Shown piece by piece: positions 10,490 through 63,304 of a stretch of DNA of 64,000 bases. Position 1 is the first letter of the stretch. Each line of letters begins with the position of its first letter. This stretch comes from Candidatus Saccharimonadota bacterium (lineage in GTDB: Bacteria > Patescibacteriota > Saccharimonadia > Saccharimonadales > JACDBH01). The stretch spans positions 2,300 through 66,299 of the forward strand of contig JAQGGW010000007.1 of NCBI GenBank assembly GCA_028289135.1, given 5' to 3'. A program made the position numbers and the translations under genes. The notes beneath the pieces were generated by a model that did not search any database, had not been told where the DNA came from, and worked only from the letters and a program-made list of their open reading frames with translations.

Positions 10490-13400
10490 GAATTTTATTT
10501 AAAAAGGGCAAACTTTGTACGGCTGTTTTTATACTTTTTTTGATGTTTATGGCTTTTGGTTTGGCCAAGGGGCAAAAGGCCGAGGCATATATACCCGGTG
10601 TTAAAAGTTCAGTTTTCCCCGACACTAGCCTGCCTGGTGGCGCGGATACTTATGCCGTTGTCCAACTACGTCAAAGCGGAGCACAAGTTCGCGCCCAAAG
10701 TACAATTGCCAACATTTATGTGCCAGTTGGTTTAGTGAACCAAAATATTGCAATAAACATCCAAGATGGCTGCAATAACTCGGGGCCCGATATTCAGGGC
10801 TGGGTAGCAAACACTTTGTTTTATATTGAAGATCCAAACATTGGATTTGGCGTAACAACGGCTTCAAACTGCGGCCCAGGCGGAACTATACCAATGAACT
10901 TTATTGCTTCGCCATCATCTAGGACTTACCAGGACAATGAAAGCGGTGTTAATTATTATGTATACAAATTCCGAGCCCAGGCTTATGGTTCGGAATCACA
11001 ACAATACCTAAACGCCTTTAGGCTAATAGGCGGCACGGGTGGTGTGTTTTTGGGTGTTGCTGATACTGATTCCTTTTGCGACAACATATCTTATCCAAAA
11101 TCCTGTCCTTCAGCTCCTCCAGGTCAAAGTTTGGTTTACTCCACTTTTTATAACCGAGGTAACCCATTTGGAGCAGACTATGGCCAAACGCTAGAAATAA
11201 ATACAGGATGTAAAAATCGTATAGGCGGAATTAGTTTGTATGACCTTGACGCAAGTGATCCCGCGCTGAATCAAGTTAATTTGCACGTTAAGCTCGAGTC
11301 AAGGCCAACTGCAGGTGGTCCAACAACATTACTGGCTGAGCTGGATAGGAATGAGCTGATTTGGATACAAGCAAACGACGATCAGTATGCCAATTTCCCA
11401 GGGAACTTGCAAATGAGCCTTGCAGCTAATACAACATTTATTATGACTATAACAGGGGTTAGTTATAACAATGCTATCCAAGCACGGCCATATCTTTTAA
11501 ATGCCAGCGATCCAAACGTATGTGGAAGTAACCCGCAAGGCTACATTGATAGTTGCCAGCTTGAAGGCGGGCATACGGTTATATATGGCTGGGCTTATGA
11601 TGGCGACTCAAACTCAAGTGGTGAGCCTCCAGTTAACCTAACTGTGAATGGGACTTCTTACGCTAATTCGGGGAATATTAACAGTGATAATCCGTATCGT
11701 GATGCGGAGATTGAAGCGTATTTAGGCGTCGGACCCTCTAAACGCAGTTATGGCTTTAGGTGGGACGCTGGTGTGTTAAACGTGGGCGGACTATGGGCAA
11801 TTTCGGGTACGGTATTAAACGTTGGCGGCGGGTCAAACCAAGGACTCGGGCTTAATACTGCAGGAGGTGCGCCGGCAGGTGGGTTTGGCTATGGATTTCC
11901 GGGAGGCGCGGTGCCTGTTGCGTGTCAACAGCCACCAAACGTTACCATATCTGGCAGTGTCTATGATGCCCAGGATTCTTCTATAAAATACGCAGGTGTA
12001 TTTATATATACTTGCGTAGCCGGGGTCTCTGCCACTACGGACGGAGCGGGCAATTATAGCTTTACTATTCCTGCTGGCACCTATTTCTGTGTCGGATCAA
12101 ATGATCTGCCAACTTATACTGACGCTATTCATCCACGGCCTACGACTGGGTGGGGGTATTTGTCCTGTCCAAACTACCCGGCTGCATCAGTAATACCTAG
12201 CGGCCAAAACCCTAACTATTGCACGGCAAGCTACCGTTATGACAACCAGCAGGCTGGGCAGTATACCGCCAACGGCTACGACCGTGGCATAGAAACAGGG
12301 TACGACTTCGCGTATACACGGCCGCAAGTTAATGTCCAGGGAGCGATTTATAACGCATACAATTTGGGTCAAAGATATGACATCTCGATTCAAACGTGTG
12401 CTTCACACTTTTATATACCCGCCAGCGTCTCAACTTCAAATGGTGTCTATAACATTACTATGTACCGCGGTGACACATACTGCTTACGCCCATCAGGGGC
12501 ATTACCTTCTGGATATTACAACGTCAGGCCGTGGTCAGAGGGCTACGGTGGCTGCGCGGCGCATAACGACCTATCTGGATATAACTATTGCGCCGGAGTT
12601 GGTACGTATGAATGGCAAGTAGCAGGAGGCCAGTATCCATTGGGGCCTAATATTGACCGCAATGCGGATAACGGATTTGATTTTGTATTCCGCTTTGCGC
12701 CTGTGGTTAACTGTAACTTAATTGGTCCAAGTGTATCAGAGGCAGGGACGCCTTTTACCGTCCAGTTTAATGGTATAGACAACAGCAACTCCTTGCAGCC
12801 TAAAGTAACAAGCGGTAATTATAGCTACACCATCCAAGGAATCGCCAGCTATGGGACTTCATATGCAGGAGGGTTAGATCCGCGCGGTTCGCCAGGCAAG
12901 GTTCTTGTTACTAATACCTATACGGCCCCAGCTGCTGGCGCATATCCTTTTACCGGGAGTATTACCGCAGTCGGAGATGGTATTCCAGCAGGGCCAGTAG
13001 CTTGTGGCGGCTTGTCATCGGTTAAGATATCTACGTTTCCATACTTTAAAACGTATGGCGAAGATGTTGTGACGGGTAATGGCTTTGATACAACAAGTGC
13101 AGCGCCAACATGCCCCGCAACGCCTGGCAACATATACGCATACGCCCAAAAAGATACTCCGGCCGGCGTTTTCAGCTCGAATTATAAGGGGGCGGGTGCG
13201 CAAAATGGTGCAATGACCCGTGGAAGTATATTAGGCTTCTTTACTGCAGCTAACAGGACCGCCGTAAATACGCCGCCAAAAAGTTTAACGTTTGCAAATA
13301 CCGCTCCAGTATCCACCGATGAATTTGGGGGTAATTATGGAGCTGGCACGCCGTGTATTACGGATTACTTTAGTGATCCTGCATTAAGCCCTGTAAATGG

Positions 13401-14100
13401 CGGCACGCGCGACCCTGGTCTTACTTCTGTCAACGGCAAAGAAAAGCCTTGGACAGGAGTTCTTGCAGGGGGCTCAGGAAAGTACCGTTATCTGGCCACA
13501 GCAAATACTAATATCACGGGGATTAGCGTTCCGGTTGGACAGCAGCTGGCAATATATGTTGATGGCGATCTTACGATTTCTGGTGATATAACTTTTGCTT
13601 CTGGAGCAAGTTTGCCAACAGACTTACCAAACTTAGCGGTTATCGTCCGAGGCAATATCTTTATTACGCCAAACGTTAAACGCATCGATGGTTTGTATGT
13701 GGCCCAGCCAAAAGTAGGGCAAGAAGCTTCGAAGGGACGAGTTTATACCTGTGCTTTGCCGTTTGCCCAGGTTGCAGCTGTTAATTTGGCAACTACTTGC
13801 GGTACGGGGTCCCAGCCACTCGCAATAAATGGCTCATTGGTAGCGCAGCAGGTCAAACTCCTCCGGGCGGTAAATTCATTAAAGGACAGCACGTATAGTA
13901 ATGTGCTGCCGGCTGGTGAAATACCAAACTTTGCAGATGGTTCTAGTACCGCCGGCGGTGCAAACACCAAGGCCGCCGAAGTTATTAACTATACCCCCGA
14001 AATGTACCTTGCGCCTTCGGCGCTAAAAGACCCTGGGCTGGCATGCATTAACACTAATTGTAACTACGACTCAATTTTTAGCCTGCCTCCGGTTTATTAA
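10486..14100 (+). CDS. giant secreted Cys-rich surface protein A (candidate adhesin)
   Basis: 1204 aa with a Sec-type signal (...FGLAKGQKAEA/YIP) and many Cys residues. Cna-B/CarboxypepD_reg-like segments are present (ISGSVYDAQD...TTDGAGNYSFTIPAGTYFC). The C-terminal ~350 aa (from FPYFKTYGEDV, nt ~13035) is shared with 14675..17818. Confidence 0.75.
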   Translation: MRILFKKGKLCTAVFILFLMFMAFGLAKGQKAEAYIPGVKSSVFPDTSLPGGADTYAVVQLRQSGAQVRAQSTIANIYVPVGLVNQNIAINIQDGCNNSGPDIQGWVANTLFYIEDPNIGFGVTTASNCGPGGTIPMNFIASPSSRTYQDNESGVNYYVYKFRAQAYGSESQQYLNAFRLIGGTGGVFLGVADTDSFCDNISYPKSCPSAPPGQSLVYSTFYNRGNPFGADYGQTLEINTGCKNRIGGISLYDLDASDPALNQVNLHVKLESRPTAGGPTTLLAELDRNELIWIQANDDQYANFPGNLQMSLAANTTFIMTITGVSYNNAIQARPYLLNASDPNVCGSNPQGYIDSCQLEGGHTVIYGWAYDGDSNSSGEPPVNLTVNGTSYANSGNINSDNPYRDAEIEAYLGVGPSKRSYGFRWDAGVLNVGGLWAISGTVLNVGGGSNQGLGLNTAGGAPAGGFGYGFPGGAVPVACQQPPNVTISGSVYDAQDSSIKYAGVFIYTCVAGVSATTDGAGNYSFTIPAGTYFCVGSNDLPTYTDAIHPRPTTGWGYLSCPNYPAASVIPSGQNPNYCTASYRYDNQQAGQYTANGYDRGIETGYDFAYTRPQVNVQGAIYNAYNLGQRYDISIQTCASHFYIPASVSTSNGVYNITMYRGDTYCLRPSGALPSGYYNVRPWSEGYGGCAAHNDLSGYNYCAGVGTYEWQVAGGQYPLGPNIDRNADNGFDFVFRFAPVVNCNLIGPSVSEAGTPFTVQFNGIDNSNSLQPKVTSGNYSYTIQGIASYGTSYAGGLDPRGSPGKVLVTNTYTAPAAGAYPFTGSITAVGDGIPAGPVACGGLSSVKISTFPYFKTYGEDVVTGNGFDTTSAAPTCPATPGNIYAYAQKDTPAGVFSSNYKGAGAQNGAMTRGSILGFFTAANRTAVNTPPKSLTFANTAPVSTDEFGGNYGAGTPCITDYFSDPALSPVNGGTRDPGLTSVNGKEKPWTGVLAGGSGKYRYLATANTNITGISVPVGQQLAIYVDGDLTISGDITFASGASLPTDLPNLAVIVRGNIFITPNVKRIDGLYVAQPKVGQEASKGRVYTCALPFAQVAAVNLATTCGTGSQPLAINGSLVAQQVKLLRAVNSLKDSTYSNVLPAGEIPNFADGSSTAGGANTKAAEVINYTPEMYLAPSALKDPGLACINTNCNYDSIFSLPPVY

Positions 14101-14675: not shown

Positions 14676-17600
14676 TGACAAGCCAAAGTGCCAGCATAAA
14701 TATAGGCGATAGCTATTATAAAAAGTTATGGCTGTTTTTTGGTCTCAGTATTGTTATTTGTTTTTTAATGGCTTTTTGGTTTGGGAGCGCAAAGGTGCAC
14801 GCAAACCAGTTGAACCTCGATCCAGGCTCTTCGATCCCCAGCAATTATTATGACTATCTTGCTAACTGCAACTCTGCTTTGCCGCAGTATAACCCAAGCC
14901 ATAGTAGCCCTGCGATTGTACAGTGGGTAGCTGATAGTTCTGGGGGTGAGGTTCAGACAATTGAAGTGCAGCCAGGAAATGATGGAAGGTACCGGTTGCA
15001 GTACATACTTGCCGGTGCTGTTTGCTTTTCTAATAATGCCGTCAGCCAAACTTTTGCTAAGATAACTAGCGCATCCGCAAGCACGGGAACAGTTAATAAT
15101 GCTGTAGATAAAACTACAGGAATAACATATGCGCACACCGGCTCACCTGGGTCATATGACGCAAGCGCCATCTTTTTTGACTATGATTTTGGCGGTCCTA
15201 TAACTACAACCCAGAACATAACATTTACAATCAGCACGAAGGTTTTAAACCATTTTACGAGCGGATTAAATGGTTGCGTAACAGGGGCCGGTTCAACGAT
15301 AGATACTTGTACTGGCCAGAGCGATATAAATATTAGTTTGACCTTCGAGGTTTCCCAGCATGCACCCATTGCCAATCTTGATTCTGCGGGTAGCTGCAGT
15401 GTAAATATTTCTGGGTGGGGTTTTGACCAAGATGCCCCAGGCACAGGACTGGCTTTTCATACGTATTTGGATCATAAAGCGGGCGAGGTTGGCGCAATTG
15501 GACTGCCCGCACAAAGCAGCACCGTACTTCGGTCTGACGTTAACAATCTAGCTGCCTATTCCGGCTACGGTCTTACAGGCAAACATGGGTTTTCGTTTGC
15601 GATGCCAGATGCCTATAAGTATTCTGACCATGCGGTATATGTGTACGCAATCGGGGTTGACCCTGCCGGCAGCCCAGATGGTACTAACGCTCTTGTAAGC
15701 GGAACTTTTACCGCATGTCCGCCGGAACATCCTCCAGCCGGCACTATCGTTACGGCAAACTGCTCAAAAATAGCTGGTAACTTTTCTGATAGTGATCACG
15801 GAGGTTCTTATAAAATAGACGTCTACTTTGGGTCTAAAACGGCCGCAAACAAAACTACAATTAGCACGGATTCTTCGGATAACTGGAGTATTACTGTACC
15901 GAATAAATATAAACACGCTTATGACATGCAGGTGTGGGTTGAAGGATACGGCAAAGCAAACGATGGCACGGAAGATGCAGACGCTACGACTCTTGCTAAC
16001 AGTCCTTCGGATTATGGCACATGCCAAAGTTCCGCCTGTTCTTCGGTTGTTGGTGATAAGAATAACGCAGGGTACGTCGACACCATTGGAGACGGTGGGG
16101 TATATACCATACAGCGCGGTGACAAATTTAAGATAAAAATGGTTTATAAAAATACGGCCCCCGCAATTGGCGGTACGACATGGAGTACAGGCCAGGAAAG
16201 CGGACAGGTTGATGTGGGCACAGACGGCCCGGCCGGTGCAAGTACTTATGGGAAAGCCGTGACATCAAGGCTTGCACCGTTTGGAGGGAATTCAAGTGTC
16301 GCACCTGGAAGTACAGCCAGCTATGCGTGGTCTCATGACTCATCAGAAGATGAGGCGGGGGATTACACTGTTAAATACGAGATGGTACAGGAACCTTCCG
16401 AATGGTTTGGGAGTACCTGCGGGTTCACTATAAGGGTAGTTTTGCCGCCTCCTGTTATCACTTGCACACTTCAACCAGGCGGGACATACGAAACAACTAT
16501 GCCTTATACGCCACAGGCCACAATTACCCATAGTGGTCCCAAGTACTCCCCAAGCTTTAGTAATATGGTTGTAACATTTTCTGTAGATGGGACGCAGGTT
16601 GGTACTTATGGGCCCAAGACAGTAGCCAATGGCAGCTCAGCATCAGCTGTGTCGTCGGGGCCGTACACAAGCCCCGATCCTGGCAAGCATAACGTAACGG
16701 CAACGGTAACGGGTTCCCCAGATCCGGCTTCGCCTATAGTTTGCGAAGCAGTTTCCGTCGAGTTTGTGTTGATGCCGTATCTAAAAACTTTTGGGGCGGA
16801 CATAAGTACGGGCAGCAACTTTAGTAACAACAATCCTGTTCCTACCTGCACGTCAACTACAGGGGGTATCTACGGTTTTGCAAGCGGATCAGGGCCAAGC
16901 TATAAAGGTGCATCAGCGCAGTACGGCGCAATGGCACGCGGGCCAATATTGGGGTTCTTTACGGCATCAAATCGTTCGTCGCTCAACAACGCGCCAAAAG
17001 GGCTAACTTTTAGCAATACAAACGCGCTTGAATTTGGGGGTAACTACGGTCCAGGCCTCCCTTGTATTACCGATTATTTTAGCGATCCAACTTCGGTCCC
17101 AGCTCCACTAAATGGCGGGACGCGTGATCCTGGACTTTTGGCAGCAAATGGCAAAGAAACAACGTGGGGCGGTTCGGTAGCTGCCGGATTAGGCAAGCAC
17201 CGCTATATTGCAAACGGCAATATTCAGATTGCTGGCCTGACCATACCTGCCGGCACCCAGGCTGCAATTTATATAAAAGGGAACCTAACAATATCAGGTG
17301 ACGTTAGTTTTGACCCCGCAAGCTCAATTGCCGCACTGCCGAATCTGGCGATAATAGTAAGAGGTAATATTTTTATTACGCCAAACGTGCAGCGGATCGA
17401 TGGCCTTTTTGTGGCCCAGCCAACGAATATCATTACCCCGTCAGATGGCCGGATTTATACCTGTGCGAACCCGTTTGCAGCCATTCCAGCCGTTAATCTT
17501 GCGACCGCATGCGGCAATAGCGGTTCGGCACCGTTGGCAGTAAACGGCGCGTTAGTTGCGCAGCAAGTTAAATTCTTAAGAACAATGAATTCGTACGGTG

Positions 17601-17818
17601 TAAATGGGACGGCGAGCAATTTGGCGCCTTATGGTGAAATACCAAATTTTGCGAATGGTTCAGAAACAGGCAACGGGGCAAACACTAGGGCCGCGGAAGT
17701 TATAAATTATACGCCAGAAGTCTACCTGGCTCCGTCTGCTATAAAAAGCCCTGACTTGGAATGTGTGGATATATCATGCAAATACGAATCAATCTATAGT
17801 TTGCCGCCTGTTTATTAG
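14675..17818 (+). CDS. giant secreted Cys-rich surface protein B (paralogue of A in the C-terminal domain)
   Basis: 1047 aa with an N-terminal signal/anchor (LWLFFGLSIVICFLMAFWFGSAKVHA). The C-terminal domain from MPYLKTFGADI (nt 16772) has long runs shared with A, e.g. LPNLA[VI]IVRGNIFITPNV[KQ]RIDGL[YF]VAQP, AAEVINYTPE[MV]YLAPSA, and the end ...S[IL][FY]SLPPVY. Confidence 0.75.
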   Translation: MTSQSASINIGDSYYKKLWLFFGLSIVICFLMAFWFGSAKVHANQLNLDPGSSIPSNYYDYLANCNSALPQYNPSHSSPAIVQWVADSSGGEVQTIEVQPGNDGRYRLQYILAGAVCFSNNAVSQTFAKITSASASTGTVNNAVDKTTGITYAHTGSPGSYDASAIFFDYDFGGPITTTQNITFTISTKVLNHFTSGLNGCVTGAGSTIDTCTGQSDINISLTFEVSQHAPIANLDSAGSCSVNISGWGFDQDAPGTGLAFHTYLDHKAGEVGAIGLPAQSSTVLRSDVNNLAAYSGYGLTGKHGFSFAMPDAYKYSDHAVYVYAIGVDPAGSPDGTNALVSGTFTACPPEHPPAGTIVTANCSKIAGNFSDSDHGGSYKIDVYFGSKTAANKTTISTDSSDNWSITVPNKYKHAYDMQVWVEGYGKANDGTEDADATTLANSPSDYGTCQSSACSSVVGDKNNAGYVDTIGDGGVYTIQRGDKFKIKMVYKNTAPAIGGTTWSTGQESGQVDVGTDGPAGASTYGKAVTSRLAPFGGNSSVAPGSTASYAWSHDSSEDEAGDYTVKYEMVQEPSEWFGSTCGFTIRVVLPPPVITCTLQPGGTYETTMPYTPQATITHSGPKYSPSFSNMVVTFSVDGTQVGTYGPKTVANGSSASAVSSGPYTSPDPGKHNVTATVTGSPDPASPIVCEAVSVEFVLMPYLKTFGADISTGSNFSNNNPVPTCTSTTGGIYGFASGSGPSYKGASAQYGAMARGPILGFFTASNRSSLNNAPKGLTFSNTNALEFGGNYGPGLPCITDYFSDPTSVPAPLNGGTRDPGLLAANGKETTWGGSVAAGLGKHRYIANGNIQIAGLTIPAGTQAAIYIKGNLTISGDVSFDPASSIAALPNLAIIVRGNIFITPNVQRIDGLFVAQPTNIITPSDGRIYTCANPFAAIPAVNLATACGNSGSAPLAVNGALVAQQVKFLRTMNSYGVNGTASNLAPYGEIPNFANGSETGNGANTRAAEVINYTPEVYLAPSAIKSPDLECVDISCKYESIYSLPPVY

Positions 17819-24747: not shown

Positions 24748-25230
24748 ATGGTGGGCAACTTTAAAAGTAAAAGAGAAGAAGGCTTCACGATTATTGAAGT
24801 CTTGATTGTTTTGGCAATCGCAGGTTTGATTATGTTAATCGTGTTCTTGGCAGTTCCTGCTTTGCAGCGTAACTCTCGTAACACACAACGTAAGAGTGAT
24901 GTTACGGCAATTCTCGGTGCGGCATCAGAATATGTAACTAACAATGGCGGTAAATTACCTGCCGCGACTGGAGCTTTTAATACCGTATTCGTAAACTCGA
25001 ATGTAAATCTTGGCTTTTACCTTCCAGCCAACGTAAAATATAACTATTCGGCAGCCGCACGTGCATCAGCTCCTGCTGTTGCAGCAGGTAACGACGCTGT
25101 TACGGTTTACAACTACCTAAAGTGCAACGGCAATGTTGCGACTATAACTGGAGCATCAGCACGAAGTCTTGCTTCGCTCTACAATGTTGAAGGTTCGGGT
25201 GGTGACACTCCACAGTGCTCAGAGTCATAA
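24748..25230 (+). CDS. pilA: major type IV pilin
   Basis: The leader MVGNFKSKREEG/FTIIEVLIVLAIAGLIML has Gly-1, Phe+1 and Glu+5. A C-terminal Cys pair is present (YLKCNG...TPQCSES). It has its own SD-bearing 5' UTR and its own terminator. Confidence 0.9.
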   Translation: MVGNFKSKREEGFTIIEVLIVLAIAGLIMLIVFLAVPALQRNSRNTQRKSDVTAILGAASEYVTNNGGKLPAATGAFNTVFVNSNVNLGFYLPANVKYNYSAAARASAPAVAAGNDAVTVYNYLKCNGNVATITGASARSLASLYNVEGSGGDTPQCSES

Positions 25231-25289: not shown

Positions 25290-26141
25290 ATGATAGTATT
25301 GATCTTAATAGTTCTTGGGTTATGTTTTGGTAGCTTTGTAAACGCCACCGTGTGGCGAATACACGAGCAAAAAGCTTTAAAGCAAAAGCCCAAGCGGGGA
25401 TCAAAGAAACCAGCCTTAACCGCCAAAGAGCTTTCGATCTCAAAAGGTCGTAGTATGTGTACGCATTGCCACCATGTTTTGGCTGCCAAGGATCTCATAC
25501 CGGTGTTGTCTTGGGTAGAGCTTCGGGGCAAATGCCGGTACTGTGGCAAAAGGATCGAAGACACTCCGCTTGCCGAACTGCTGACTCCACTACTGTTTGT
25601 AATTTCTTATCTGTGGTGGCCAACCACATTCACGACCATGCAAACGGTTAATTTTGTTATGTGGTGCGTGGCGCTAGTTGGCTTTGTGGCGCTTATGATC
25701 TATGACATCCGCTGGCTCACGCTGCCAAACCGGATTGTGTACCCGCTAACCGTGCTGGCGGCTGGTGTAGCCATCCTAAACATCACTGTGTTTCATGGCG
25801 GCATGTCGAGCCTTAAGGACATCGGTTTTGCCGTACTTATCGACGCCGGGCTCTTTTACGGCTTGTTTCAGCTATCCAAGGGCAAATGGATTGGAGGCGG
25901 TGACGTAAAGCTCGGATTATTACTTGGTTTGCTTATAGCAGCACCTATACCAGCATTTTTAGTGCTGTTTTTTGCTTCGCTTATTGGGACGGTATTGATT
26001 TTGCCTGGTCTAATAACCAAAAAGGTAACGGCCAAAAGCCACATTCCATTCGGACCGTTTTTAATTATTGCGACAATAATTGTCCGCCTCTTCGGTGCCG
26101 GCATAGTAGCCTGGTACAAAAAGAAATTTTTACTGTATTAA
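25290..26141 (+). CDS. pilD: prepilin peptidase (A24 family) PilD
   Basis: 283 aa with a CxxC...CxxC zinc motif (MCTHCHH...GKCRYCGK), multiple TM segments, and the Asp boxes IYDIRWLTLPN and GGGDVKLG. Confidence 0.88.
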   Translation: MIVLILIVLGLCFGSFVNATVWRIHEQKALKQKPKRGSKKPALTAKELSISKGRSMCTHCHHVLAAKDLIPVLSWVELRGKCRYCGKRIEDTPLAELLTPLLFVISYLWWPTTFTTMQTVNFVMWCVALVGFVALMIYDIRWLTLPNRIVYPLTVLAAGVAILNITVFHGGMSSLKDIGFAVLIDAGLFYGLFQLSKGKWIGGGDVKLGLLLGLLIAAPIPAFLVLFFASLIGTVLILPGLITKKVTAKSHIPFGPFLIIATIIVRLFGAGIVAWYKKKFLLY

Positions 26142-26143
26142 CA

Positions 26144-26172
26144 CCCCACAAGGCAGGCCTTGCGGGGGCCCC
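26144..26172 (+). terminator. GC hairpin (CCCC-N6-CAGG-N6-GGGG-GCCCC), probable U-tract-less terminator of pilD
   Basis: ccccacaagg/cagg/ccttgcgggg starts 3 nt after the pilD stop. Same architecture as 29432-29460, 45276-45304 and 61936-61959(-). Confidence 0.5.
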
Positions 26173-26211
26173 ATGATAAAGTTTATTTTATCCCCTACAT
26201 ATTAATTTGCA

Positions 26212-26265
26212 GGGTTACAGCTCATTCCAATCGTGAAAAAGACCGAGATAAACTCGGATCTTTTT
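26212..26265 (+). ncRNA. candidate small RNA, copy 1 (conserved 5' block plus intrinsic terminator)
   Basis: gggttacagctcattccaatcgtg is followed by the hairpin aaaaagaccgag/ataaa/ctcggatcttttt. The -10-like TATTAA at 26200-26205 ends 6 nt upstream. Confidence 0.3.
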
Positions 26266-26292
26266 CCAGTACTCAGTATCCATGTCTTAAAC

Positions 26293-26346
26293 AAAAAGAT
26301 CCGGCTCCGCCGGTCTTTTTGCAGGAACGAAAGTGGCTGTAACTGG
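26293..26346 (-). ncRNA. candidate small RNA, copy 2
   Basis: The minus strand reads ccagttacagccactttcgttcctgcaaaaagaccggcggagccggatcttttt, a paralogue of copy 1. TATGTTATTCA lies upstream on the minus strand. Confidence 0.3.
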
Positions 26347-26418
26347 AGTGAATAACATACAAATAAAGAAAAATTCCCATAAGGGGCCCCCGCAAAGCCT
26401 GCTTTGTGGGGTACCGGT

Positions 26419-26429
26419 TATGCTATACT
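26419..26429 (+). promoter_or_regulatory. extended -10 promoter of the minor-pilin operon (leaderless)
   Basis: tatgctatact at 26419-26429. ATG 26437 is 8 nt after the hexamer. Confidence 0.55.
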
Positions 26430-26436
26430 AACAGGT

Positions 26437-27240
26437 ATGAAAAGCGCCAAGGCGGTTGGTGTTGCAGGGTACACCATTTTAGAGGTTATGATCGTGCTCG
26501 TGGTAACGGGTGGTTTGTTTGCGAGTGTAGCTGCAATGCTCAGCGGTAAACAAGCTACAACCGAGTTCAACCAAGCAGTCCGTGACTATGAAGCTAAAAT
26601 CCAAGCAACGGCGAGCGATGTAGCTACGGGTTTTTATTCAACAGGAACTTTTAGCTGTAGCGTAAGTGGCCCAGGCCCCGTTACGTTTGCTCCAGCGCCG
26701 GTTAGTTTGCCCGGCACGAACAAAGGCTGTCTGTTTTTAGGCAAAATGTTGGCAACAGGGGCATTATCTACAGATATTTTTACTTTGGCCGGCCGCCAAT
26801 ATAAACCAGATAATATTACAGATATCGAGACTTTAGCGGACGCCTCAGCCCGGGCAGTATACTCTCCAGTAGATATTACAGAACCCTACACCAATAAATT
26901 TAGCATGATGATTAAAAACGTCTATACCATACCTGGCAATGTATCAATTGGCGGTTTTGGATTTATATCCGAGCTAAGCGGAGCAAATGGTGCTGGTAGC
27001 CCAGATACTGGGAGCAGGGGTGTTTTGCTATACGGCCTGACAGGTACCACATCTCCAAATGCCAACAACCGTGCAGCCAATGCTGCGCTTATTAATGCCG
27101 GCGTAACTCCTGAGCCTACGGGTGTAAGGGTGTGCCTTTGGGATGGTGGCAATCACAAAGGAGAAATAACGGTTGGTGATAACGGCAGTCAAACAACCAC
27201 AGAGGTAACGTTTGACAACGGAGTCAGCCCAGTATGTTAA
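26437..27240 (+). CDS. minor (pseudo)pilin, prepilin-type N-terminus
   Basis: Track ORF trimmed to ATG 26437. MKSAKAVGVAG/YTILEVMIVLVVTGGLF is a class III signal with Glu+5. Confidence 0.8.
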   Translation: MKSAKAVGVAGYTILEVMIVLVVTGGLFASVAAMLSGKQATTEFNQAVRDYEAKIQATASDVATGFYSTGTFSCSVSGPGPVTFAPAPVSLPGTNKGCLFLGKMLATGALSTDIFTLAGRQYKPDNITDIETLADASARAVYSPVDITEPYTNKFSMMIKNVYTIPGNVSIGGFGFISELSGANGAGSPDTGSRGVLLYGLTGTTSPNANNRAANAALINAGVTPEPTGVRVCLWDGGNHKGEITVGDNGSQTTTEVTFDNGVSPVC

Positions 27241-27704
27241 GACAGCGTAAATCACTTTTGGAGCGTGGCGACACTATCGTCGAAGTCTTAATTTCCATAG
27301 CCGTTGCGGGCTTGGTTCTTGCCATTACCTACAGCACTATGAACCGTAACCTACTCGTTACACAAGCCAGCCAGGAGCGTACCGAAGCCACCAAAATCGC
27401 ACAGGGCCAGCTAGAACTTATAAAAGCACACAACGATACAGGGGACACTACCATTACAAGTGGTACTTTTTGCCTTGATGCTTCTTCGACGACAGCTATC
27501 CCGGGCTTTACTGGCGGCTCACCTTTGCCCTCACTGCCTGATAACTTCGCAAACTATCCAGCTGGCTGCCGCGGCAAAGGCCTTAACGGCTTTTATAACA
27601 TCGGGATTACAACTAATAGCGGCATTTACAAAGTCTTCGTACGTTGGGACAGCGTTTTGGGCAACGGCCAACAGGACCAAGTCATAATGGTATACGAAAT
27701 ATGA
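27234..27704 (+). CDS. minor pilin, prepilin-type N-terminus
   Basis: MLRQRKSLLERG/DTIVEVLISIAVAGLVLAI has Glu+5. It overlaps the upstream gene by 7 nt. Confidence 0.75.
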   Translation: MLRQRKSLLERGDTIVEVLISIAVAGLVLAITYSTMNRNLLVTQASQERTEATKIAQGQLELIKAHNDTGDTTITSGTFCLDASSTTAIPGFTGGSPLPSLPDNFANYPAGCRGKGLNGFYNIGITTNSGIYKVFVRWDSVLGNGQQDQVIMVYEI

Positions 27705-28345
27705 GATTTTTTAGTAGCAACGGCCAAAAGAATAAAGAACAGGGCTTTACAATCCTTGAGCTGCTTATATCTACCGCGGTATTTTCGGTTGTTTTACTTC
27801 TGTGCGCGACTGCCATTGTCCAGGTAGGCCAGATCTACTATAAGGGAGTTGTAACGAATCGAATTCAGGATACTTCACGCAAAGTTGCGAACGATGTAAT
27901 CGGCGCGATACAGTATGGCGATACTAATTTGCTGCACCAAAAAGTTCCTATCACCGGGGGCTTCGCGGAATGCCTTGGTACTATTCGCTACACCTATTTA
28001 CTTTCTAAATCAGTGGGTACAGGGACTGGGCAATCGGCACATGTGTTATGGAAAGATCGTATTGGGGCGTCTGGTTCTTGCGGGTTAAACCCAGTAAACC
28101 TCAACGCGCCTGTGGGCCAGGGCGAAGAGCTGCTTGGGCCAAATATGCGCGTTAAAGACTTTACGATTAACTCGCTGACTGGCAGCACGTGGCAGGTCAC
28201 TATAACAGTTGCATACGGCGCAACAGATGACGTATTTAACCTTGTAGGTGGTGTCTATGATTATGGCCACTGCATTCCAAGAAACACAGGCGGGCAGTTT
28301 TGTGCAGTGTCATCAATTACCAGTTATGTGACAGAAAGGTTATGA
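27701..28345 (+). CDS. minor pilin, prepilin-type N-terminus
   Basis: ATG 27701 overlaps the upstream stop (ATGA). MRFFSSNGQKNKEQG/FTILELLISTAVFSVVLL. Confidence 0.8.
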   Translation: MRFFSSNGQKNKEQGFTILELLISTAVFSVVLLLCATAIVQVGQIYYKGVVTNRIQDTSRKVANDVIGAIQYGDTNLLHQKVPITGGFAECLGTIRYTYLLSKSVGTGTGQSAHVLWKDRIGASGSCGLNPVNLNAPVGQGEELLGPNMRVKDFTINSLTGSTWQVTITVAYGATDDVFNLVGGVYDYGHCIPRNTGGQFCAVSSITSYVTERL

Positions 28346-28352
28346 TAAAAGT

Positions 28353-29426
28353 ATGAAATTGCTCAAGGTAAAAAACCAGCAGGGATTCGTATCAATCTTT
28401 TCGGTTTTAATTATTATGAGCGTCCTTACTTTGCTTGCTATAGGCTTTTCTAATATTACCCGCAGTGCCCAAAAGCGAACTTTGGACAACCAGCTAAACA
28501 CTCAGGCATTTTATGCCGCTGAGTCGGGCGTAAATGAGGCAAAAAAGGCCTTGCTCATCAACCCTACTGCCTCAAAGTCCACATGCCAGGGAACTACTAC
28601 ACCAGCAGTGCCAGGTACTTTTACTACCTATACTCTTGACGCTACACTTTCTTCTGGCTACACCTGTGTACTCATCAACCCCGCAATAGATCTTAAGTTC
28701 GACTCTGTTTCTACCCAAGGTGTAGGCTCGCCAAAAACCGGTACAATCGAAAGTTCTACGGGTCCGTTTGGGTCATTTGATGTCAGCTGGTCAGGACCAG
28801 GCGGAGGAGCCGTTCCAATCCCCAAACCGGCGGGAAGCTACCCATATATTTTAGATAACTCCGCATCTTGGGGCAACAAACTAGGCGTTTTGCGGGTTGA
28901 CCTAGTCCCAGTTGACCTAGGGCTCGACAGGGCTACGCTTGCCACCAAAAGCTACTCTTTTTATCTTTACCCATCACAAAATAGCCCCTCGAACCAAGCA
29001 ACACTCGGCGGCTTAAATGGTACGGCCGACCAAGCACAGCTCGTCTACGTTAAATGTGCGGCCACTGTTTCGCCTTGTAGCGCAACTGTACACGTCACCA
29101 ACAATGCCAGCAGCAAATTCTACATACGCGTGCAGTCACTTTACAACCCGTCGTCCTCAGTTATCCTCAACAATTTTAAGAGTAATACAGGAACGGCCTT
29201 AACAACAAAAAGCGGACAGGTAATTGTGGACGCAACTGGCAAGGCAAATGACGTGCTGCGGCGTATACAGGTAAGGGTAAAACAGTCAGGAACCGATAAT
29301 TTCTCATCTGACTATGCCATCCAGTCTGGAGAATCCATCTGTAAACGCTTGCAGGTTGCCAAGCCAGACAATGTAACTCCTACAACTACTGATCAGTCTG
29401 ATACGGCTTGCCAAACAAATAATTAA
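28353..29426 (+). CDS. PilX-like minor pilin / pilus tip component
   Basis: MKLLKVKNQQG/FVSIFSVLIIMSVLTLLAIGF lacks Glu+5. It is followed by ...AFYAAESGVNEA, the PilX_N-type motif. 357 aa with C-terminal Cys residues. Confidence 0.65.
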   Translation: MKLLKVKNQQGFVSIFSVLIIMSVLTLLAIGFSNITRSAQKRTLDNQLNTQAFYAAESGVNEAKKALLINPTASKSTCQGTTTPAVPGTFTTYTLDATLSSGYTCVLINPAIDLKFDSVSTQGVGSPKTGTIESSTGPFGSFDVSWSGPGGGAVPIPKPAGSYPYILDNSASWGNKLGVLRVDLVPVDLGLDRATLATKSYSFYLYPSQNSPSNQATLGGLNGTADQAQLVYVKCAATVSPCSATVHVTNNASSKFYIRVQSLYNPSSSVILNNFKSNTGTALTTKSGQVIVDATGKANDVLRRIQVRVKQSGTDNFSSDYAIQSGESICKRLQVAKPDNVTPTTTDQSDTACQTNN

Positions 29427-29431
29427 ACATA

Positions 29432-29460
29432 CCCCATGAAACAGGTTTCATGGGGACCCC
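29432..29460 (+). terminator. GC hairpin of the CCCC-N6-CAGG-N6-GGGG-ACCCC family
   Basis: ccccatgaaa/cagg/tttcatgggg/acccc, 6 nt after the stop of 28353..29426. Confidence 0.5.
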
Positions 29461-29473
29461 GTAAATTACGTTT

Positions 29474-29625
29474 GCTCCCGACCATCCCCCTCCTTGGAAA
29501 TTTCGGCACATTGATTTAGCCGCTGGAGACAGTTTTACGCTATTAAATCAACGTGCCGAAACTTCCCGTAAACCTCACCATGTAGCTAAAAGTCATGTGA
29601 AGCCCCCTGATGGGGCTTCACGGGG
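29474..29625 (-). repeat. ~130-150-nt repeat, copy 1 (contains a 71-nt hairpin with a 23-bp stem at 29496-29566)
   Basis: ggaaatttcggcacattgattta ... taaatcaacgtgccgaaacttcc. The reverse complement aligns by eye over ~130 nt with 63305-63442. Confidence 0.8.
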
Positions 29626-29645: not shown

Positions 29646-30569
29646 CTAGATTTGTTTATCGTGAAATTTGGTGTGGATTTCTTTGAGGTGGGGGTCGGTG
29701 ACGTGGGTGTAGATCTGGGTGGTGGCGATGTTGCTGTGGCCAAGCATCGCCTGCACGCTTCGCAAATCAGCGCCGTTCATCAGTAGGTCGGTCGCAAAAC
29801 TGTGCCGCATGGTGTGCGGGCTAACGTGTTTGGTAATTCCGGCCAGCAGGGCATAGCGCGCAACTAACCTTTGTACGCTGCGTGCCGTTAAACGGTAAAA
29901 GTTGCCGTCCAAGTTTATTTGTTTGTGGCCGCTGTAGCGCACAAACAGCGGCTTAGCATTATCCATCCGCATGTCTAGGTATTTCTGAATGCAATCCGCT
30001 GCGGTGTCGCTGATAAAAATCGGCCGGTCTTTTTGGCCTTTTCCGCGCACCGTAAACTCTTTACGCTTTAAGTTAATATGATCTTTGTCGAGCCCAACCA
30101 GCTCCGATACACGCAGCCCAGATGAAAATAATAGCTCCATAATTGCTTTATCACGCAGGCCCGCCAAGCTATTTGTGTCCGGTGTTTCAAACATACGCTG
30201 CAGTTCTTCGGGAGTTAAAAACGTAACTTGTTTGCGGACGGTTCTTGCCAGCTCAACTTTGTCGGCGCTCATGCAGGGGAGGTCGCGTTTGGTGCAGTAT
30301 TTTAAGAAACTTCTAAGGGCAATCAAATGATAGTTCTGCGTGTTTTTTTGCAGCTCGTCCGACACGTTTGTGCCCAAGCGGTTGAGCCACAAACGCCACT
30401 TACGAAGCATCTCGGGGTCGATGTCACTAAGTTTCATGTCATCCCCGGCAAAGTCCAGCAAACGGGTCAGGTAATGGTCATAGTTTTGGATAGTCTTTTG
30501 TGAGCGGTTTTGCTCGATCTCCAGATATTCCAAAAAGTCAGTCTTTAGTTTGCTTACAAGCATAAACAT
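29646..30569 (-). CDS. xerC: tyrosine recombinase, XerC/XerD-like
   Basis: 307 aa with an N-terminal SAM-like core-binding domain (FLEYLEIEQNRSQKTIQNYDHYL) and a catalytic region ...SPHTMRHSFATDLL...LGHSNIATTQIYTHV (R..HxxR..Y). Confidence 0.8.
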   Translation of the reverse strand: MFMLVSKLKTDFLEYLEIEQNRSQKTIQNYDHYLTRLLDFAGDDMKLSDIDPEMLRKWRLWLNRLGTNVSDELQKNTQNYHLIALRSFLKYCTKRDLPCMSADKVELARTVRKQVTFLTPEELQRMFETPDTNSLAGLRDKAIMELLFSSGLRVSELVGLDKDHINLKRKEFTVRGKGQKDRPIFISDTAADCIQKYLDMRMDNAKPLFVRYSGHKQINLDGNFYRLTARSVQRLVARYALLAGITKHVSPHTMRHSFATDLLMNGADLRSVQAMLGHSNIATTQIYTHVTDPHLKEIHTKFHDKQI

Positions 30570-30666: not shown

Positions 30667-30694
30667 AGTGAAAAGTAACAAAAGGATAAATCTC

Positions 30695-31204
30695 ATGGAA
30701 CGAACTTTCATCATCTTCAAACCAGACGCAGTCCAACGCGGCATTGTAGGCGAAATCTTAACTCGCTTCGAAAAGGCCGGTCTTAAAATAGTCGGCACCA
30801 AAATGATCAAACCAACAGAAGAAGAGTTCCACCACCACTACGAAGGCATCAGCCAAATGATCTCACGCCGCGGCCAAAAAGCCTTTGACGTTACGCTTGC
30901 CATGATGCAAGAAGGCCCCGTCATCGCAGCAGTCCTTGAAGGCATTGAAGCCGTAAGTTTGGTCCGCAAAATGGTCGGCACAACCGAGCCAAAGAGTGCA
31001 CTGCCTGGTACCATCCGCGGCGACTACGCACACATGAGCTTTGGCTACGCAGACGGGCAGGGCGTTGGGATCCCCAACCTCATCCACGCATCTGGCGACG
31101 CCAACGAAGCCAAGCTTGAAATCGCACATTGGTTTAGCGACAGCGAACTCTTCGACTACGAAACCGCAGCTGAAGCCTTCACCCAGACTAAGTCAAAAAA
31201 ATAA
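30695..31204 (+). CDS. ndk: nucleoside diphosphate kinase
   Basis: MERTFIIFKPDAVQRGIVGEILTRFEKAGLKIVG ... GTIRGDYA ... NLIHASGD (active-site His) ... EIAHWF. Confidence 0.9.
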   Translation: MERTFIIFKPDAVQRGIVGEILTRFEKAGLKIVGTKMIKPTEEEFHHHYEGISQMISRRGQKAFDVTLAMMQEGPVIAAVLEGIEAVSLVRKMVGTTEPKSALPGTIRGDYAHMSFGYADGQGVGIPNLIHASGDANEAKLEIAHWFSDSELFDYETAAEAFTQTKSKK

Positions 31205-31254: not shown

Positions 31255-31277
31255 GTGCCTCTGGCAGGAATCGAATC
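31255..31277 (-). repeat. degenerate copy of the tRNA-Arg 3' end (fragment 1)
   Basis: gtgcctctggcaggaatcgaatc compared with tRNA gtgcccctggcaggaatcgaacc. It is followed by the hairpin agaatgcc/tgc/ggcattct. Confidence 0.7.
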
Positions 31278-31346
31278 GGAAGAATGCCTGCGGCATTCTG
31301 AGTACACGCTAAAGTCGCTTATGGGTAGATTTACTTAAAATACGAA

Positions 31347-31371
31347 TGGTGCCCCTGGCAGGAATCGAACC
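31347..31371 (-). repeat. exact copy of the 25-nt tRNA-Arg 3' end (fragment 2)
   Basis: tggtgcccctggcaggaatcgaacc is identical to 31419-31443. It is followed by the hairpin aacatgcc/tgt/ggcatgtt. Confidence 0.8.
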
Positions 31372-31418
31372 CAGAACATGCCTGTGGCATGTTTCTGTCG
31401 GTGTGAGCGATAGTAATT

Positions 31419-31493
31419 TGGTGCCCCTGGCAGGAATCGAACCTACAGCCTCTCCTTAGGACGGAGCAATTTTATCCATTGAACTACAGGGGC
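31419..31493 (-). tRNA. tRNA-Arg(CCT)
   Basis: The minus strand reads GCCCCTG TA GTTC AATGGATA AAAT T GCTCC GTCCTAA GGAGA GGCT GTAGG TTCGATT CCTGC CAGGGGC A CCA. The acceptor and T arms are well paired. The D and anticodon stems each have a mismatch. CCA is encoded. Confidence 0.75.
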
Positions 31494-45191: not shown

Positions 45192-45275
45192 CGTCGTAAG
45201 ACTAAGTACAACCCGCTGTATTTGAGCGAACAAGTAGCTCAAATCCTGCGGGTCGTACTATAGCTCACTCCTTAA

Positions 45276-45304
45276 CCCCGCTGAACAGGTTCAGCGGGGA
45301 CCCC
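45276..45304 (+). terminator. GC hairpin of the CCCC-N6-CAGG-N6-GGGG-ACCCC family
   Basis: ccccgctgaa/cagg/ttcagcgggg/acccc, downstream of the tRNA pair. It is preceded by a 53-nt hairpin at 45206-45258. Confidence 0.5.
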
Positions 45305-45342
45305 AATTGATACTTTATCTTGATCTAACGTTTATTGCTCGG

Positions 45343-45888
45343 TTACAGTTGCTTTCGATCTTTGAGGGCTGAGAGTTTATTTTTGTAGAGAAAGCTGATT
45401 ACGGCGACGGTGAGGAGCCAGCCTAGGAGGACGGTTTTGGTTAGGGTAGTTTCGCGATTTTCTACCTCTGTTAGAGAGCGAGCGGAGACGACGTAGTATT
45501 GGTTGGCTTCAACGGCGACTGCGGCAAGGCGGATGTTATATTCGGGCTGCCAGGTGACAGCGTTGTAGCCGGATCCTGCGCTTTTTAGGACGCCGATTGG
45601 GATTTCGCGCAGCGGGGCTTGGCCGTTGTAGACGGAGGAGGCAACTGCGCGGCCTTGTTTGTTATAGATAACAATAAATGGAGCCAGGCTTTTGCTGGCG
45701 TCGACCTTGCTGGTTAGCAGTGAAGCGGGGTCAACACCGTTATTTAACACTGCCGCAGCATCTTCGGCCATCTGGATCTGTGGGTCATTGGCACTGGAGC
45801 GTAAAACCGACTGGCTGGCGGCATAAATTGTGCCAAAAATGATGGTTATGGCCGCGAGCAGGGCAAGAGATTTTAGATATTTCTTCAT
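45343..45888 (-). CDS. hypothetical exported protein with C-terminal TM anchor
   Basis: 181 aa with signal MKKYLKSLALLAAITIIFGTIYA and the C-terminal helix VLLGWLLTVAVISFLY. Confidence 0.5.
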   Translation of the reverse strand: MKKYLKSLALLAAITIIFGTIYAASQSVLRSSANDPQIQMAEDAAAVLNNGVDPASLLTSKVDASKSLAPFIVIYNKQGRAVASSVYNGQAPLREIPIGVLKSAGSGYNAVTWQPEYNIRLAAVAVEANQYYVVSARSLTEVENRETTLTKTVLLGWLLTVAVISFLYKNKLSALKDRKQL

Positions 45889-59089: not shown

Positions 59090-61820
<2,731 letters not shown>

Positions 61821-61838
61821 GGCTGTCGTGTTTTAATC

Positions 61839-61892
61839 AAAAAGATCCGGGCTTGGCCCGGTCTTTTTGCTGAATGGAATGAACTGTAACCC
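61839..61892 (-). ncRNA. candidate small RNA, copy 3 (its hairpin also serves as the atpC terminator on the + strand)
   Basis: The minus strand reads gggttacagttcattccattcagcaaaaagaccgggccaagcccggatcttttt, nearly identical in its 5' block to 26212-26265. TAGAAT lies just upstream on the minus strand. Confidence 0.3.
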
Positions 61893-61935
61893 ATTCTAAA
61901 AGACATTAGAATTAGAAAAGCTTACATTATGCGGT

Positions 61936-61959
61936 CCCCGCAAGGCCTGCCTTGTGGGG
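61936..61959 (-). terminator. GC hairpin (CCCC-N6-CAGG-N6-GGGG family) after the gene at 61966..63012
   Basis: The minus strand reads ccccacaagg/cagg/ccttgcgggg, beginning 7 nt after the stop codon. Confidence 0.5.
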
Positions 61960-61965
61960 TGTGAG

Positions 61966-63012
61966 TTATTCCTCGACGATGTAGTTGATGGCATAACCCC
62001 CAGGAGGCAGGGCGCTGGCAACATAGACGCTAAAACCGGCAACGCTTGGGTTGACGATGTAGAAAACGGCGCCAGTGCCAATGCCTGTTAAAACAATACG
62101 GGGAACGGTGGCGTATTGGGTACGGAAGGCGACGGTGCCTATGTGTCCGGGGTTTGCCCCAACGCCAATGGCGATTGAGATTGTGCCGGCAGAATCGTTG
62201 CCGTTCATGGCCGCTGTGCCGTTTGAACCAAGAGCATTGCCGGCCCCAAAATTTGGAATTTGGCCGCTGGTTATAATATGTCCGCCGATGGTTAATGTGC
62301 CGGTGGATGTGAGGTTGCGGGCAACAAAACCAGCGGTTGAGATTGTGCCGCCAACAGCAAGGTTACCCAGCAGGTTTAGGTTGTTATTAACGGTTAAAAG
62401 TTGCTGTATGGTGACTGCACCTTGGAGCGTGGTTGAACCTGCAACCGTAAGATTACCGCGCATAGTTAGAGCGCTAAGAGTTGTGGCACCACTTACGTTT
62501 AACTCGGTTAAGGAAGTTTTGCCTGCCTCAAGTTGGGCAAGGGCGGCGTCATTGGCGTTAAATTTGCTGTTTAGCTTTAGTTGACCGCCAACTGTGACAT
62601 CGCCGGCGGTTTTTAGTTTGCCGTTAAACTGGGCGTCGGGGTCGACAGTTAGCTGGACGCCCGAGTTGCCGATGGCTGTTTTATTAACGCCGACTTTGCT
62701 GAGCGCATCAGCGTTGATTGTCACCTGGCCGGTATTTGCGTTGTCGGGTTTTTTGCCCTTGAGCACAAAGCCCAGCACGACGCCGTTGATGGCAAGAATA
62801 ACCACCACCACGGCGATGGCTATGAAGGTTGCTTTGTGGCTCGGGCGGTAGGAACGGCGGCGTTGTTTTTTACCCGCTTCAGAGGAGGCGGAAAGTTTAG
62901 TCGGTGCGGTAGCGGCCGTTGTGGTGGCAGCGGCATCAACGACCCGGGGCTTTAGTACTTCGGCAGCCGGCGCGCCGTCTGTGGGCGCATCTGGCGATGG
63001 GGGTGTGTCCAT
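61966..63012 (-). CDS. membrane-anchored surface protein with beta-helix-like Gly/Asn/Thr/Val-rich repeats
   Basis: 348 aa with a basic cytoplasmic N-terminus and TM FIAIAVVVVILAINGVVLGFVL. Repetitive ...GNLTVAGSTTLQGAVTI...LGNLAVGGTIST... segments follow. TATAAT lies on the minus strand at 63043-63048. Confidence 0.5.
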   Translation of the reverse strand: MDTPPSPDAPTDGAPAAEVLKPRVVDAAATTTAATAPTKLSASSEAGKKQRRRSYRPSHKATFIAIAVVVVILAINGVVLGFVLKGKKPDNANTGQVTINADALSKVGVNKTAIGNSGVQLTVDPDAQFNGKLKTAGDVTVGGQLKLNSKFNANDAALAQLEAGKTSLTELNVSGATTLSALTMRGNLTVAGSTTLQGAVTIQQLLTVNNNLNLLGNLAVGGTISTAGFVARNLTSTGTLTIGGHIITSGQIPNFGAGNALGSNGTAAMNGNDSAGTISIAIGVGANPGHIGTVAFRTQYATVPRIVLTGIGTGAVFYIVNPSVAGFSVYVASALPPGGYAINYIVEE

Positions 63013-63301: not shown

Positions 63302-63304
63302 TCC

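Follow-up and report, generated by a model that had tools for sequence, protein, structure and literature searches.

The question addressed here is which kind of element forms the large palindrome that separates pilD from the minor-pilin genes in the type IV pilus locus of a Candidatus Saccharimonadota bacterium (contig JAQGGW010000007.1), within a 64,000-nucleotide (nt) stretch referred to as the window, whose numbering is used throughout. The initial annotation regarded this palindrome as part of a small-RNA gene family and offered a mobile terminator or insulator cassette as the alternative; the cassette fits the results better. The 270-nt palindrome corresponds to two units, c1 and c2, of about 130 nt each and arranged tail-to-tail, belonging to a family of composite repeats whose outer hairpin is found across phyla, is structurally constrained and pairs differently on its two strands. 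The pilus locus carries two back-to-back bidirectional terminators ahead of an independently promoted operon. Tentatively, and at slightly less than even confidence, the palindrome is explained as two copies of a Saccharibacteria repeat similar to the repetitive extragenic palindromic (REP) sequences and bacterial interspersed mosaic elements (BIMEs), having a selfish-hairpin origin and a role in cis at transcript boundaries.

The composite unit in the window and across Saccharibacteria

The region 26135-26420 folds as a single long hairpin of -124.6 kcal/mol, compared with -70.5 +/- 4.6 kcal/mol for its shuffled versions (z = -11.8). The two inverted copies described at first are present, although the palindrome is not near-perfect, its arms being 69% identical overall (about 90% at the hairpin ends, 53% in the spacer, 64% in the box and 64% in the terminator). 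The covariance search that had been suggested was carried out with model R1, built from 16 units and run on the window and on the fetched related loci (cited by L numbers). In the window it recovered exactly four full units and one solo hairpin. The reported third copy next to atpC was found again (c3), and the count of three has to be raised, as a fourth full unit (c4) and the solo hairpin are also present.

Unit c1 (26142-26272, + strand; R1 94.3 bits, E = 2.7e-22, matched over the full length and also included in alignments A1 and A2) starts 2 nt past the pilD stop codon (26139-26141). Its hairpin module (26144-26172, + strand) reads CCCCACAAGGCAGGCCTTGCGGGG followed by GCCCC, and an A.C mismatch of the stem on the + strand corresponds to a G.U pair on the opposite strand. 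The c1 box (26214-26235, + strand; GTTACAGCTCATTCCAATCGTG) lies 41 nt past the module and is followed by a bidirectional intrinsic terminator (26236-26265; AAAAAGACCGAG..CTCGGATCTTTTT) with a bulged A. Unit c2 is inverted (26283-26416, - strand; 111.6 bits, E = 5.9e-27) and contains a bidirectional intrinsic terminator (26293-26320), a box (26322-26343, - strand), where the + strand reads CTGTAAC at 26337-26343, and a hairpin module (26383-26411, - strand), where the + strand reads GGGGCCCCCGCAAAGCCTGCTTTGTGGGG. The c2 module ends 9 nt ahead of the extended -10 element of the minor-pilin operon.

Unit c3 (61832-61964, - strand; 100.2 bits) is located between atpC and a convergent gene, with its terminator at 61839-61868, box at 61870-61890 and module at 61931-61959. 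The module is 6 nt past the stop codon of the open reading frame (ORF) 61966-63012 (- strand), and the terminator is 18 nt past the atpC stop codon. Unit c4 (45271-45391, + strand; 88.2 bits, E = 1.2e-20) has a module (45276-45304, + strand) with a fully compensated stem, GCTGAA/TTCAGC, that differs in sequence from those of the other copies. The convergent ORF 45343-45888 (- strand) ends within the GTTACA motif of c4 (45342-45347), which holds its TAA stop codon, and no canonical terminator was found in this unit. The solo hairpin module (29432-29460, + strand; CCCCATGAAACAGGTTTCATGGGG followed by ACCCC) gave a partial R1 match of 35.4 bits; it stands 5 nt past the stop codon of the PilX-like ORF 28353-29426, and no box follows it. 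All five modules of the window are intergenic, with a density of 5 per 64 kb. The matches in the window far exceed those expected by chance for the hairpin (3 vs 0.00), the box (2 vs 0.04) and the terminator (2 vs 0.00). The terminators of c1, c2 and c3 consist of a GC hairpin and a U-tract, as intrinsic terminators do, and score as terminator-like on both strands.

A metagenome scan with a pattern of the hairpin, 35-65 nt and GTTACAG returned five contigs, and alignment A2 combines the units of metagenome contigs with those of genome loci, reaching 16 units on 10 Saccharibacteria contigs. The anatomy originally proposed (GC hairpin, AT-rich stretch, conserved block and terminator) was borne out. 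The order is a 29-nt hairpin module, an AT-rich spacer of 37-41 nt with weakly conserved sequence, the GTTACA box, a pyrimidine-rich tract and, in 8/16 units, a terminator with a common bulged A and compensated inner stems; the remaining eight keep the box without a terminator. The box had been expected to persist in other genomes if it was functional, and GTTACA is invariant in 16/16 units. A semi-conserved ARATGWAAA motif is present just past the module, and 14/16 units are single. Full units, these 16 copies, were seen in Saccharibacteria only. Outside this group, a GTTACA box is linked to 1/141 modules (L129), which is the chance level, and the long-unit pattern gave one chance match without hairpin in viral contigs. 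In the Saccharibacteria loci L120 and L121 (21 kb each), neither unit nor module was detected by R1.

The module always forms the outer end of the unit, touching a flanking essential feature (a stop codon, a tRNA end or a promoter). In 7/21 Saccharibacteria cases it is located 2-6 nt past a co-oriented stop codon or tRNA 3' (CCA) end, and several other modules are 4-26 nt upstream of the -10 element of a gene pointing away. The unit makes up the spacer between tRNAs in L012, L028 and L115, fills the gap between two divergent promoters in L040 (7027-7140) and directly precedes a start codon in L116. Units occur in every orientation and context and are not restricted to gene ends.

Part of this anatomy is what would be expected from the small-RNA (sRNA) gene family originally proposed, in which a trans-acting RNA with a GUUACAG seed and a pyrimidine-rich tract would end at the intrinsic terminator, being produced from a weak promoter in the spacer or by trailer processing. 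The invariant box is followed by a semi-conserved CACTTCCGTTTC-like tract and, in eight units, by a homologous terminator; the spacer is about as long as a promoter; and seven units are directly behind a co-oriented gene or tRNA, with that strand certainly transcribed, including the possibility of release by processing for the inter-tRNA units. In this they resemble sRNAs from 3' untranslated regions and tRNA spacers, such as 3'ETS-leuZ of Escherichia coli, which have a conserved block and terminator right behind a gene or tRNA; they differ in that many units lie outside a trailer context. Several observations are difficult to reconcile with an sRNA gene. The -10-like hexamer that had been attributed to the units has no fixed offset on either strand, and a sigma-70 scan gave no promoter in any unit of the window. 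The terminator is missing from half of the units even though the box is kept, the L040 unit is located between divergent promoters and the L116 unit just ahead of a start codon, and c2 and its L119 ortholog are antisense to both neighbouring genes. A solo GTTACA box without hairpin was not found in the sequences searched. On both strands, RNAalifold recovered the hairpin as the sole conserved structure, and full pairing of this hairpin is limited to the complement of the proposed sRNA strand. The sole proposed target, an 11-nt complement at 11348-11358, does exist, but it matches c1 only (c3 reads GGAATGAACTG) and is compatible with chance given the free choice of the 11-mer. What holds of the gene family is therefore its anatomy and conserved block, and not the promoter, fold, solo box or consistent terminator; this explanation is considered unlikely.

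Other functions of the box and spacer were also tried and rejected. Neither a -35 role for TGTAAC (ECF-like or sigma-70) nor a promoter ahead of GTTACA is accompanied by a -10-like peak at any offset on either strand. A conserved fold of the whole unit was discarded, the individual spacer folds being different from each other, as was a long-range pairing between ARATGWAAA and GTTACA, where the partner is too variable and the invariant box makes covariation impossible. Small ORFs, among them ATG-TAA start-stops, are not consistently present from copy to copy, judging by eye from alignments A2 and A6. As a mimic of the 16S rRNA 3' end, the box reaches p = 0.005 in L114 alone, the 15 other units being not significant. 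No known RNA family matches at or near its Rfam gathering score.

The hairpin module, its strand asymmetry and its spread

The module has the form (A)CCCC-A-N5-CAGG-N5'-Y-GGGG-N-CCCC, in which a 24-nt stem-loop and a 5-nt tail add up to 29 nt. This short imperfect palindrome is conserved among the copies, with five in the window and 34 distinct variants overall. A pattern that ignores structure (CCCCA-N5-CAGG-N5-Y-GGGG-N-CCCC) found 28 sites in 27 viral loci, and all 28 have 4-5 of the 5 inner pairs complementary, though the pattern did not demand pairing. Covariation over the 34 distinct modules is 0.59-0.66, compared with 0.16-0.21 in shuffles (0/500 of which reach the observed value), and is also above slid controls; five or six of the stem pairs vary on both sides. 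In about 190 kb of Saccharibacteria DNA, nearly every short-loop CCC..GGG hairpin has a CAGG/CCTG loop. The module is an independent element, dispersed across phyla, whose stem is kept by compensatory change. No T-run flanks the 29-nt module in Saccharibacteria on either side, and the module itself is not an intrinsic terminator. At gathering thresholds, Rfam matched tRNA and rRNA only in the window and 18 loci, and E-value scans of the palindrome and two Clostridia modules gave sub-threshold noise only. The searchable literature yielded no account of this hairpin, nor of Saccharibacteria repeats.

The two strands of the module do not pair equally. Standard pairs amount to 99.4% on the strand with the CCTG loop and 92.6% on the strand with the CAGG loop (34 modules), and the difference stems from the 5/20 pair, next to the CCCC/GGGG clamp. 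On the CAGG strand this pair is A.C in 20 modules, A-U in 12 and G-C in 2, part of this count being fixed by the search patterns, and on the CCTG strand it reads G.U, A-U or G-C. The same picture was obtained with about 16 stem variants in which the 5/20 pair is free of the search patterns (about 8 A.C, 6 A-T and 2 G-C). Because pairing is complete on the CCTG strand only, this is taken as the strand that folds, be it in RNA or in single-stranded DNA.

A scan of one genome per species for the exact 24-mer, which covered the A/T stem variant but not the G/C variant of c1 and c3, found the identical sequence at no fewer than 113 loci, mostly in Clostridia (Oscillospiraceae and Lachnospiraceae), with at least 7 Saccharibacteria contigs. 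Since the matches listed cover the A/T variant only, this taxonomic range is a lower bound. Single Clostridia metagenome-assembled genomes contributed at least 20 loci in the same scan, and secondary searches of the loci showed variant stems in the same genomes as the 24-mer. In Clostridia, modules are found between housekeeping genes (L026) and in the spacers of tRNA and rRNA operons, a location shared by both phyla, and often directly 5' of a Shine-Dalgarno-like purine run with the CCTG strand in sense orientation.

In several homologous families of mobile elements, modules adjoin relaxase genes. These include L003, with the module between a NikA-like gene and a MobA/VirD2-type relaxase, and L068, with the module upstream of a MobA/MobL relaxase. 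Among the matches listed for 147 de-duplicated ORFs within 500 nt of modules, the only enriched families are Relaxase (7), MobA_MobL (5) and NikA-like (5). The module rides on relaxase-bearing elements and phage contigs, and the identical stem in many genera is attributed to widely shared relaxase-bearing elements. In L003, L068 and about 40 more Clostridia loci, the CCTG-strand module is followed by AGAGGAGnAGC and, after about 25 nt, by a second inverted repeat. This relaxase-linked block is conserved over about 90 nt beside the NikA-like/relaxase or MobA/MobL genes, and may be part of an origin of transfer (oriT) region or a leader. The viral contig L129 has a module (2699-2727) inside a 101-amino-acid ORF (2596-2901), which means that modules are not strictly intergenic in phage DNA; 14 nt after its second module, the same contig reads GGGTTACAG and has a terminator-like hairpin.

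The position and pairing of the module also suit a cis-acting RNA element for end protection or processing, in which a protein-binding stem-loop would cap the 3' ends of mRNAs and pre-tRNAs, or the 5' ends of downstream mRNAs, with the AU-rich spacer as an endonuclease zone. REP elements of E. coli stabilise upstream mRNA in a comparable way. The modules a few nt past stop codons or CCA ends, those in tRNA and rRNA operon spacers of both phyla, and those ahead of Shine-Dalgarno-like runs in Clostridia are all in agreement with this role, and the alternation of G.U and A-U is a classical signature of RNA pairing. However, the sense transcript in Saccharibacteria is usually the CAGG strand, with the A.C mismatch in 59% of the variants and the fully pairing strand in antisense; the orientation to transcription is mixed between the phyla; and the invariant GTTACA at a fixed distance is left unexplained. 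We know of no candidate binding protein, which also counts against this function, and the likelihood assigned to it is low.

Relation to known mobile repeats and the favoured explanation

The REP, BIME and REPIN sequences of Proteobacteria are lineage-specific in the case of REPs and are mobilised by REP-associated tyrosine transposases (RAYT, TnpA_REP), of the Y1 HUH type. The elements described here share with them an imperfect palindrome of about 25-30 nt, a conserved tetranucleotide beside the stem and an apparently extragenic location, often a few nt from stop codons. Like REPs, they seem to be dispersed in many copies, single or as inverted pairs with a linker (the pair being the 270-nt palindrome in this case). 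Their strand-asymmetric pairing suggests recognition of a folded single strand, and a role in transcript ends or attenuation is possible. There are also differences: the flank is GGGG/CCCC (GGGG-N on the CCTG strand, A4) instead of the GTAG of REPs; no RAYT was found for the module; identical stems cross phyla, on conjugative or mobilisable elements and phage contigs; and the Saccharibacteria unit adds a box at fixed distance and its own terminator.

A second comparison is with IS200/IS605 insertion sequences and their palindrome-associated derivatives (PATEs). In IS608, the TTAC cleavage site is 19 nt from the left hairpin, and the end hairpin of IS200 is a bidirectional terminator. The unit appears similar in its asymmetric ends, with a hairpin at or near each one (the module and the bulged-A terminator), in having no evident target duplication, in the short invariant motif at fixed distance from a hairpin, and in a terminator that is bidirectional like the IS200 end hairpin. 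It differs in the distance (37-41 nt), in two hairpins that are unrelated in sequence, and in a boundary that is undefined on the terminator side. Neither tnpA nor tnpB was found near units or modules by ORF families or tblastn. With approximate queries of IS200 TnpA and the E. coli RAYT, tblastn against the window and all loci gave one IS200-like match (L106), 6.7 kb from a module, and Y1_Tnp is absent from the best 25 of the 152 families matched by ORFs near modules.

Correia elements of Neisseria (CREE) and similar miniature inverted-repeat transposable elements (MITEs) alter the transcription and processing of adjacent genes. They are likewise intergenic repeats of 100-270 nt with a long RNA hairpin; in the present family, however, the basic unit is half a palindrome, with no terminal inverted repeats per unit and no TA duplication seen. 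The ends of single units are unrelated, and only the pair c1 and c2 mimics terminal inverted repeats; target-site duplications of the MITE type were not found either. Flanks beside the module are variable, with A or T preferred.

Diversity-generating retroelements (DGRs) also occur in the Candidate Phyla Radiation, which includes Saccharibacteria. In Firmicutes and phages, the stem of the DGR target hairpin is GC-rich, 7-10 bp long and free in sequence, its 4-nt loop is fixed as GRNA on the sense strand, and the hairpin lies 4-34 bp past the variable repeat (VR) that has a copy in the template repeat (TR) (PMC3240598). The module resembles it in the GC-rich stem of free sequence, the fixed 4-nt loop and the position a few nt past the 3' end of a surface-protein gene, but modules are also present past tRNAs, in rRNA spacers and upstream of promoters. 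A DGR target was rejected, the loop being CAGG and not GRNA, with no TR/VR-like repeat at the 3' ends of the flanking genes. A group II intron or IIC target was also discarded, as no intron was detected in the scanned loci.

A fixed spacing with free spacer sequence could also indicate that a recombinase or nucleoid protein, such as the XerC/D-like protein encoded 3 kb away, binds the unit as double-stranded DNA, the cruciform module and GTTACA being two spaced sites. A Xer-like gene is conserved beside the pilus locus in 4/4 syntenic genomes, and the semi-conserved ARATGWAAA past the module, which may resemble XerD arms, could belong to such a site. On the other hand, a stem that co-varies freely speaks for folding of one strand and not for half-site recognition, modules are common in Clostridia without the box, and there is no inverted partner arm of the dif type, which makes this possibility very unlikely.

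The comparison of orthologous sites shows how the units change. Unit c2 is orthologous to the single unit of L119, with shared sequence around the box and the same position before the promoter, and the stem in L119 is ATGAAA/TTTCAT. Similarly, c4 is orthologous to a unit in L040 (7645-7769), between tRNA-Thr and the same convergent gene, and again the stems differ. The same stem subfamilies recur across genomes; the differences at orthologous sites are for this reason taken to reflect turnover or gene conversion, and probably not stepwise compensation. Unit c1 is a lineage-specific addition.

According to the favoured REP/BIME-like explanation, the module would be, or would have been, a selfish DNA element that forms a hairpin. 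A strand-specific enzyme, for which an HUH-type nuclease is the first candidate, would recognise it in its folded single-stranded form; mobile elements would carry it from genome to genome, and GTTACA at its fixed distance could be a second recognition or cleavage site. Within the host, the unit would act in cis as a transcript boundary: the two bidirectional terminators would end pilD transcription and stop read-through both ways, and transcription of the minor-pilin operon would begin separately, at an extended -10 promoter located 9 nt past the palindrome. Several points weigh against this explanation. No IS200/RAYT-like or relaxase gene is present in the window or in the approximately 190 kb of related Saccharibacteria DNA, and no pair of empty and filled sites with a clean junction or target duplication was found. 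Two units are kept at orthologous sites in genomes whose PilD is about 65-67% identical, which points to a host-level function more than to recent mobility. Modules have no replication-strand bias in the window (3 vs 2 on a uniformly positive GC skew). The invariant box, pyrimidine-rich tract and terminator also have the look of an sRNA with a 5' seed, behind a spacer that would suit a promoter in length. Finally, the CAGG strand of seven units, with the A.C hairpin, is necessarily part of the 3' trailer of a gene or tRNA, which leaves room for a role as RNA.

A broader version of this explanation is rather doubtful. It would make the module (GGGG-N-CCCC-R-N5-CCUG-N5'-U-GGGG on the strand that folds) an undescribed family of mobile single-stranded DNA hairpins, a cross-phylum analogue of REPs that is carried by conjugative or mobilisable elements and phages and processed by a nuclease of the relaxase type or another of the HUH class. 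In Saccharibacteria, with their reduced genomes, it would have become part of a longer cassette (hairpin, spacer of fixed length, GTTACA and terminator) that is kept at orthologous gene boundaries.

The pilus locus, neighbouring repeats and meaning of the unit

According to Pfam, the locus contains genes for a pilin (24748-25230), PilD (25290-26141), four minor-pilin-like proteins (26437-29426), a XerC/D-like recombinase (29646-30569, - strand) and NDK (30668-31204), with atpC further away (61557-61820). The nearest PilD homologs are 68% identical to PilD of the window, and the pilus locus is syntenic in three other genomes (L119, L120 and L121). The minor-pilin operon has a host feature outside the repeat (26421-26439, + strand), composed of the extended -10 element TGCTATACT (26421-26429) and the ATG at 26437, which is 8 nt downstream. 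The sequence TTATGCTATACTwACAGGTATGAAA (26418-26442 in the window and 10950-10975 in L119) is also found in L120 and L121, and is kept with or without a unit. The minor-pilin mRNA is probably leaderless, and the conserved arrangement suggests that this applies to the operon in all four of these distant Saccharibacteria. Next to the unit in L114 there is a comparable TGCTATACT promoter. In the spacer between pilD and the pilin genes, one unit is present in L119 and none in L121; L120 carries there an unrelated palindrome, about 150 nt long (approximately 10900-11100; GTTTACCGTTTTCTCCGCCACCTGGCGGAT...). Palindromic inserts seem to be frequent in this spacer.

Other repeats are present in the window. 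A second, unrelated family has copies at 29471-29610 (+ strand) and 63302-63443 (inverted), with 84% identity over 85 nt and a long hairpin of about 23 bp at its core (GGAAATTTCGGCACATTGATTTAG..TAAATCAACGTGCCGAAACTTCC). At 29462-29625 the - strand folds better (-67.3 vs -55 kcal/mol; z = -5.7 and -5.1). This family has no Rfam match and was not found in any fetched locus; one of its copies is directly past the solo hairpin module. The 3' half of tRNA-Arg(cct) is partially repeated twice (31255-31296 and 31349-31390) just downstream of the intact gene (31419-31493, - strand) and near the XerC/D-like recombinase gene; these partial copies could be degenerate attachment sites left by an integrative element. 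A 43-nt hairpin (45213-45255; ACCCGCTGTATTTGAGC..GCTCAAATCCTGCGGGT) lies between tRNA-Gly and c4, and is missing from the orthologous site of L040, where the module directly follows tRNA-Thr. Several colinear repeats, 70-80% identical and about 3.71 kb apart (13320-14045 and 17029-17763), indicate two paralogous segments in the giant-protein region.

Saccharibacteria genomes are streamlined, with a size of about 1 Mb. Genomes of this kind would not be expected to retain 130 nt of non-coding sequence at the same gene boundaries over such deep divergence. The retention suggests that the cassette either has a genuine function in regulation or as a boundary, or is a selfish element that succeeds in a lineage regarded as having few of them. 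The uncatalogued cross-phylum 24-nt stem-loop, shared by Saccharibacteria, gut Clostridia, relaxase modules and phage contigs, offers a testable handle on how hairpins spread between phyla and on the enzyme that reads them. Additionally, the unit would mark where transcripts end and begin in the type IV pilus locus, regarded as necessary for the epibiotic life of Saccharibacteria, and it can be used as a probe to annotate operon structure in uncultured genomes.

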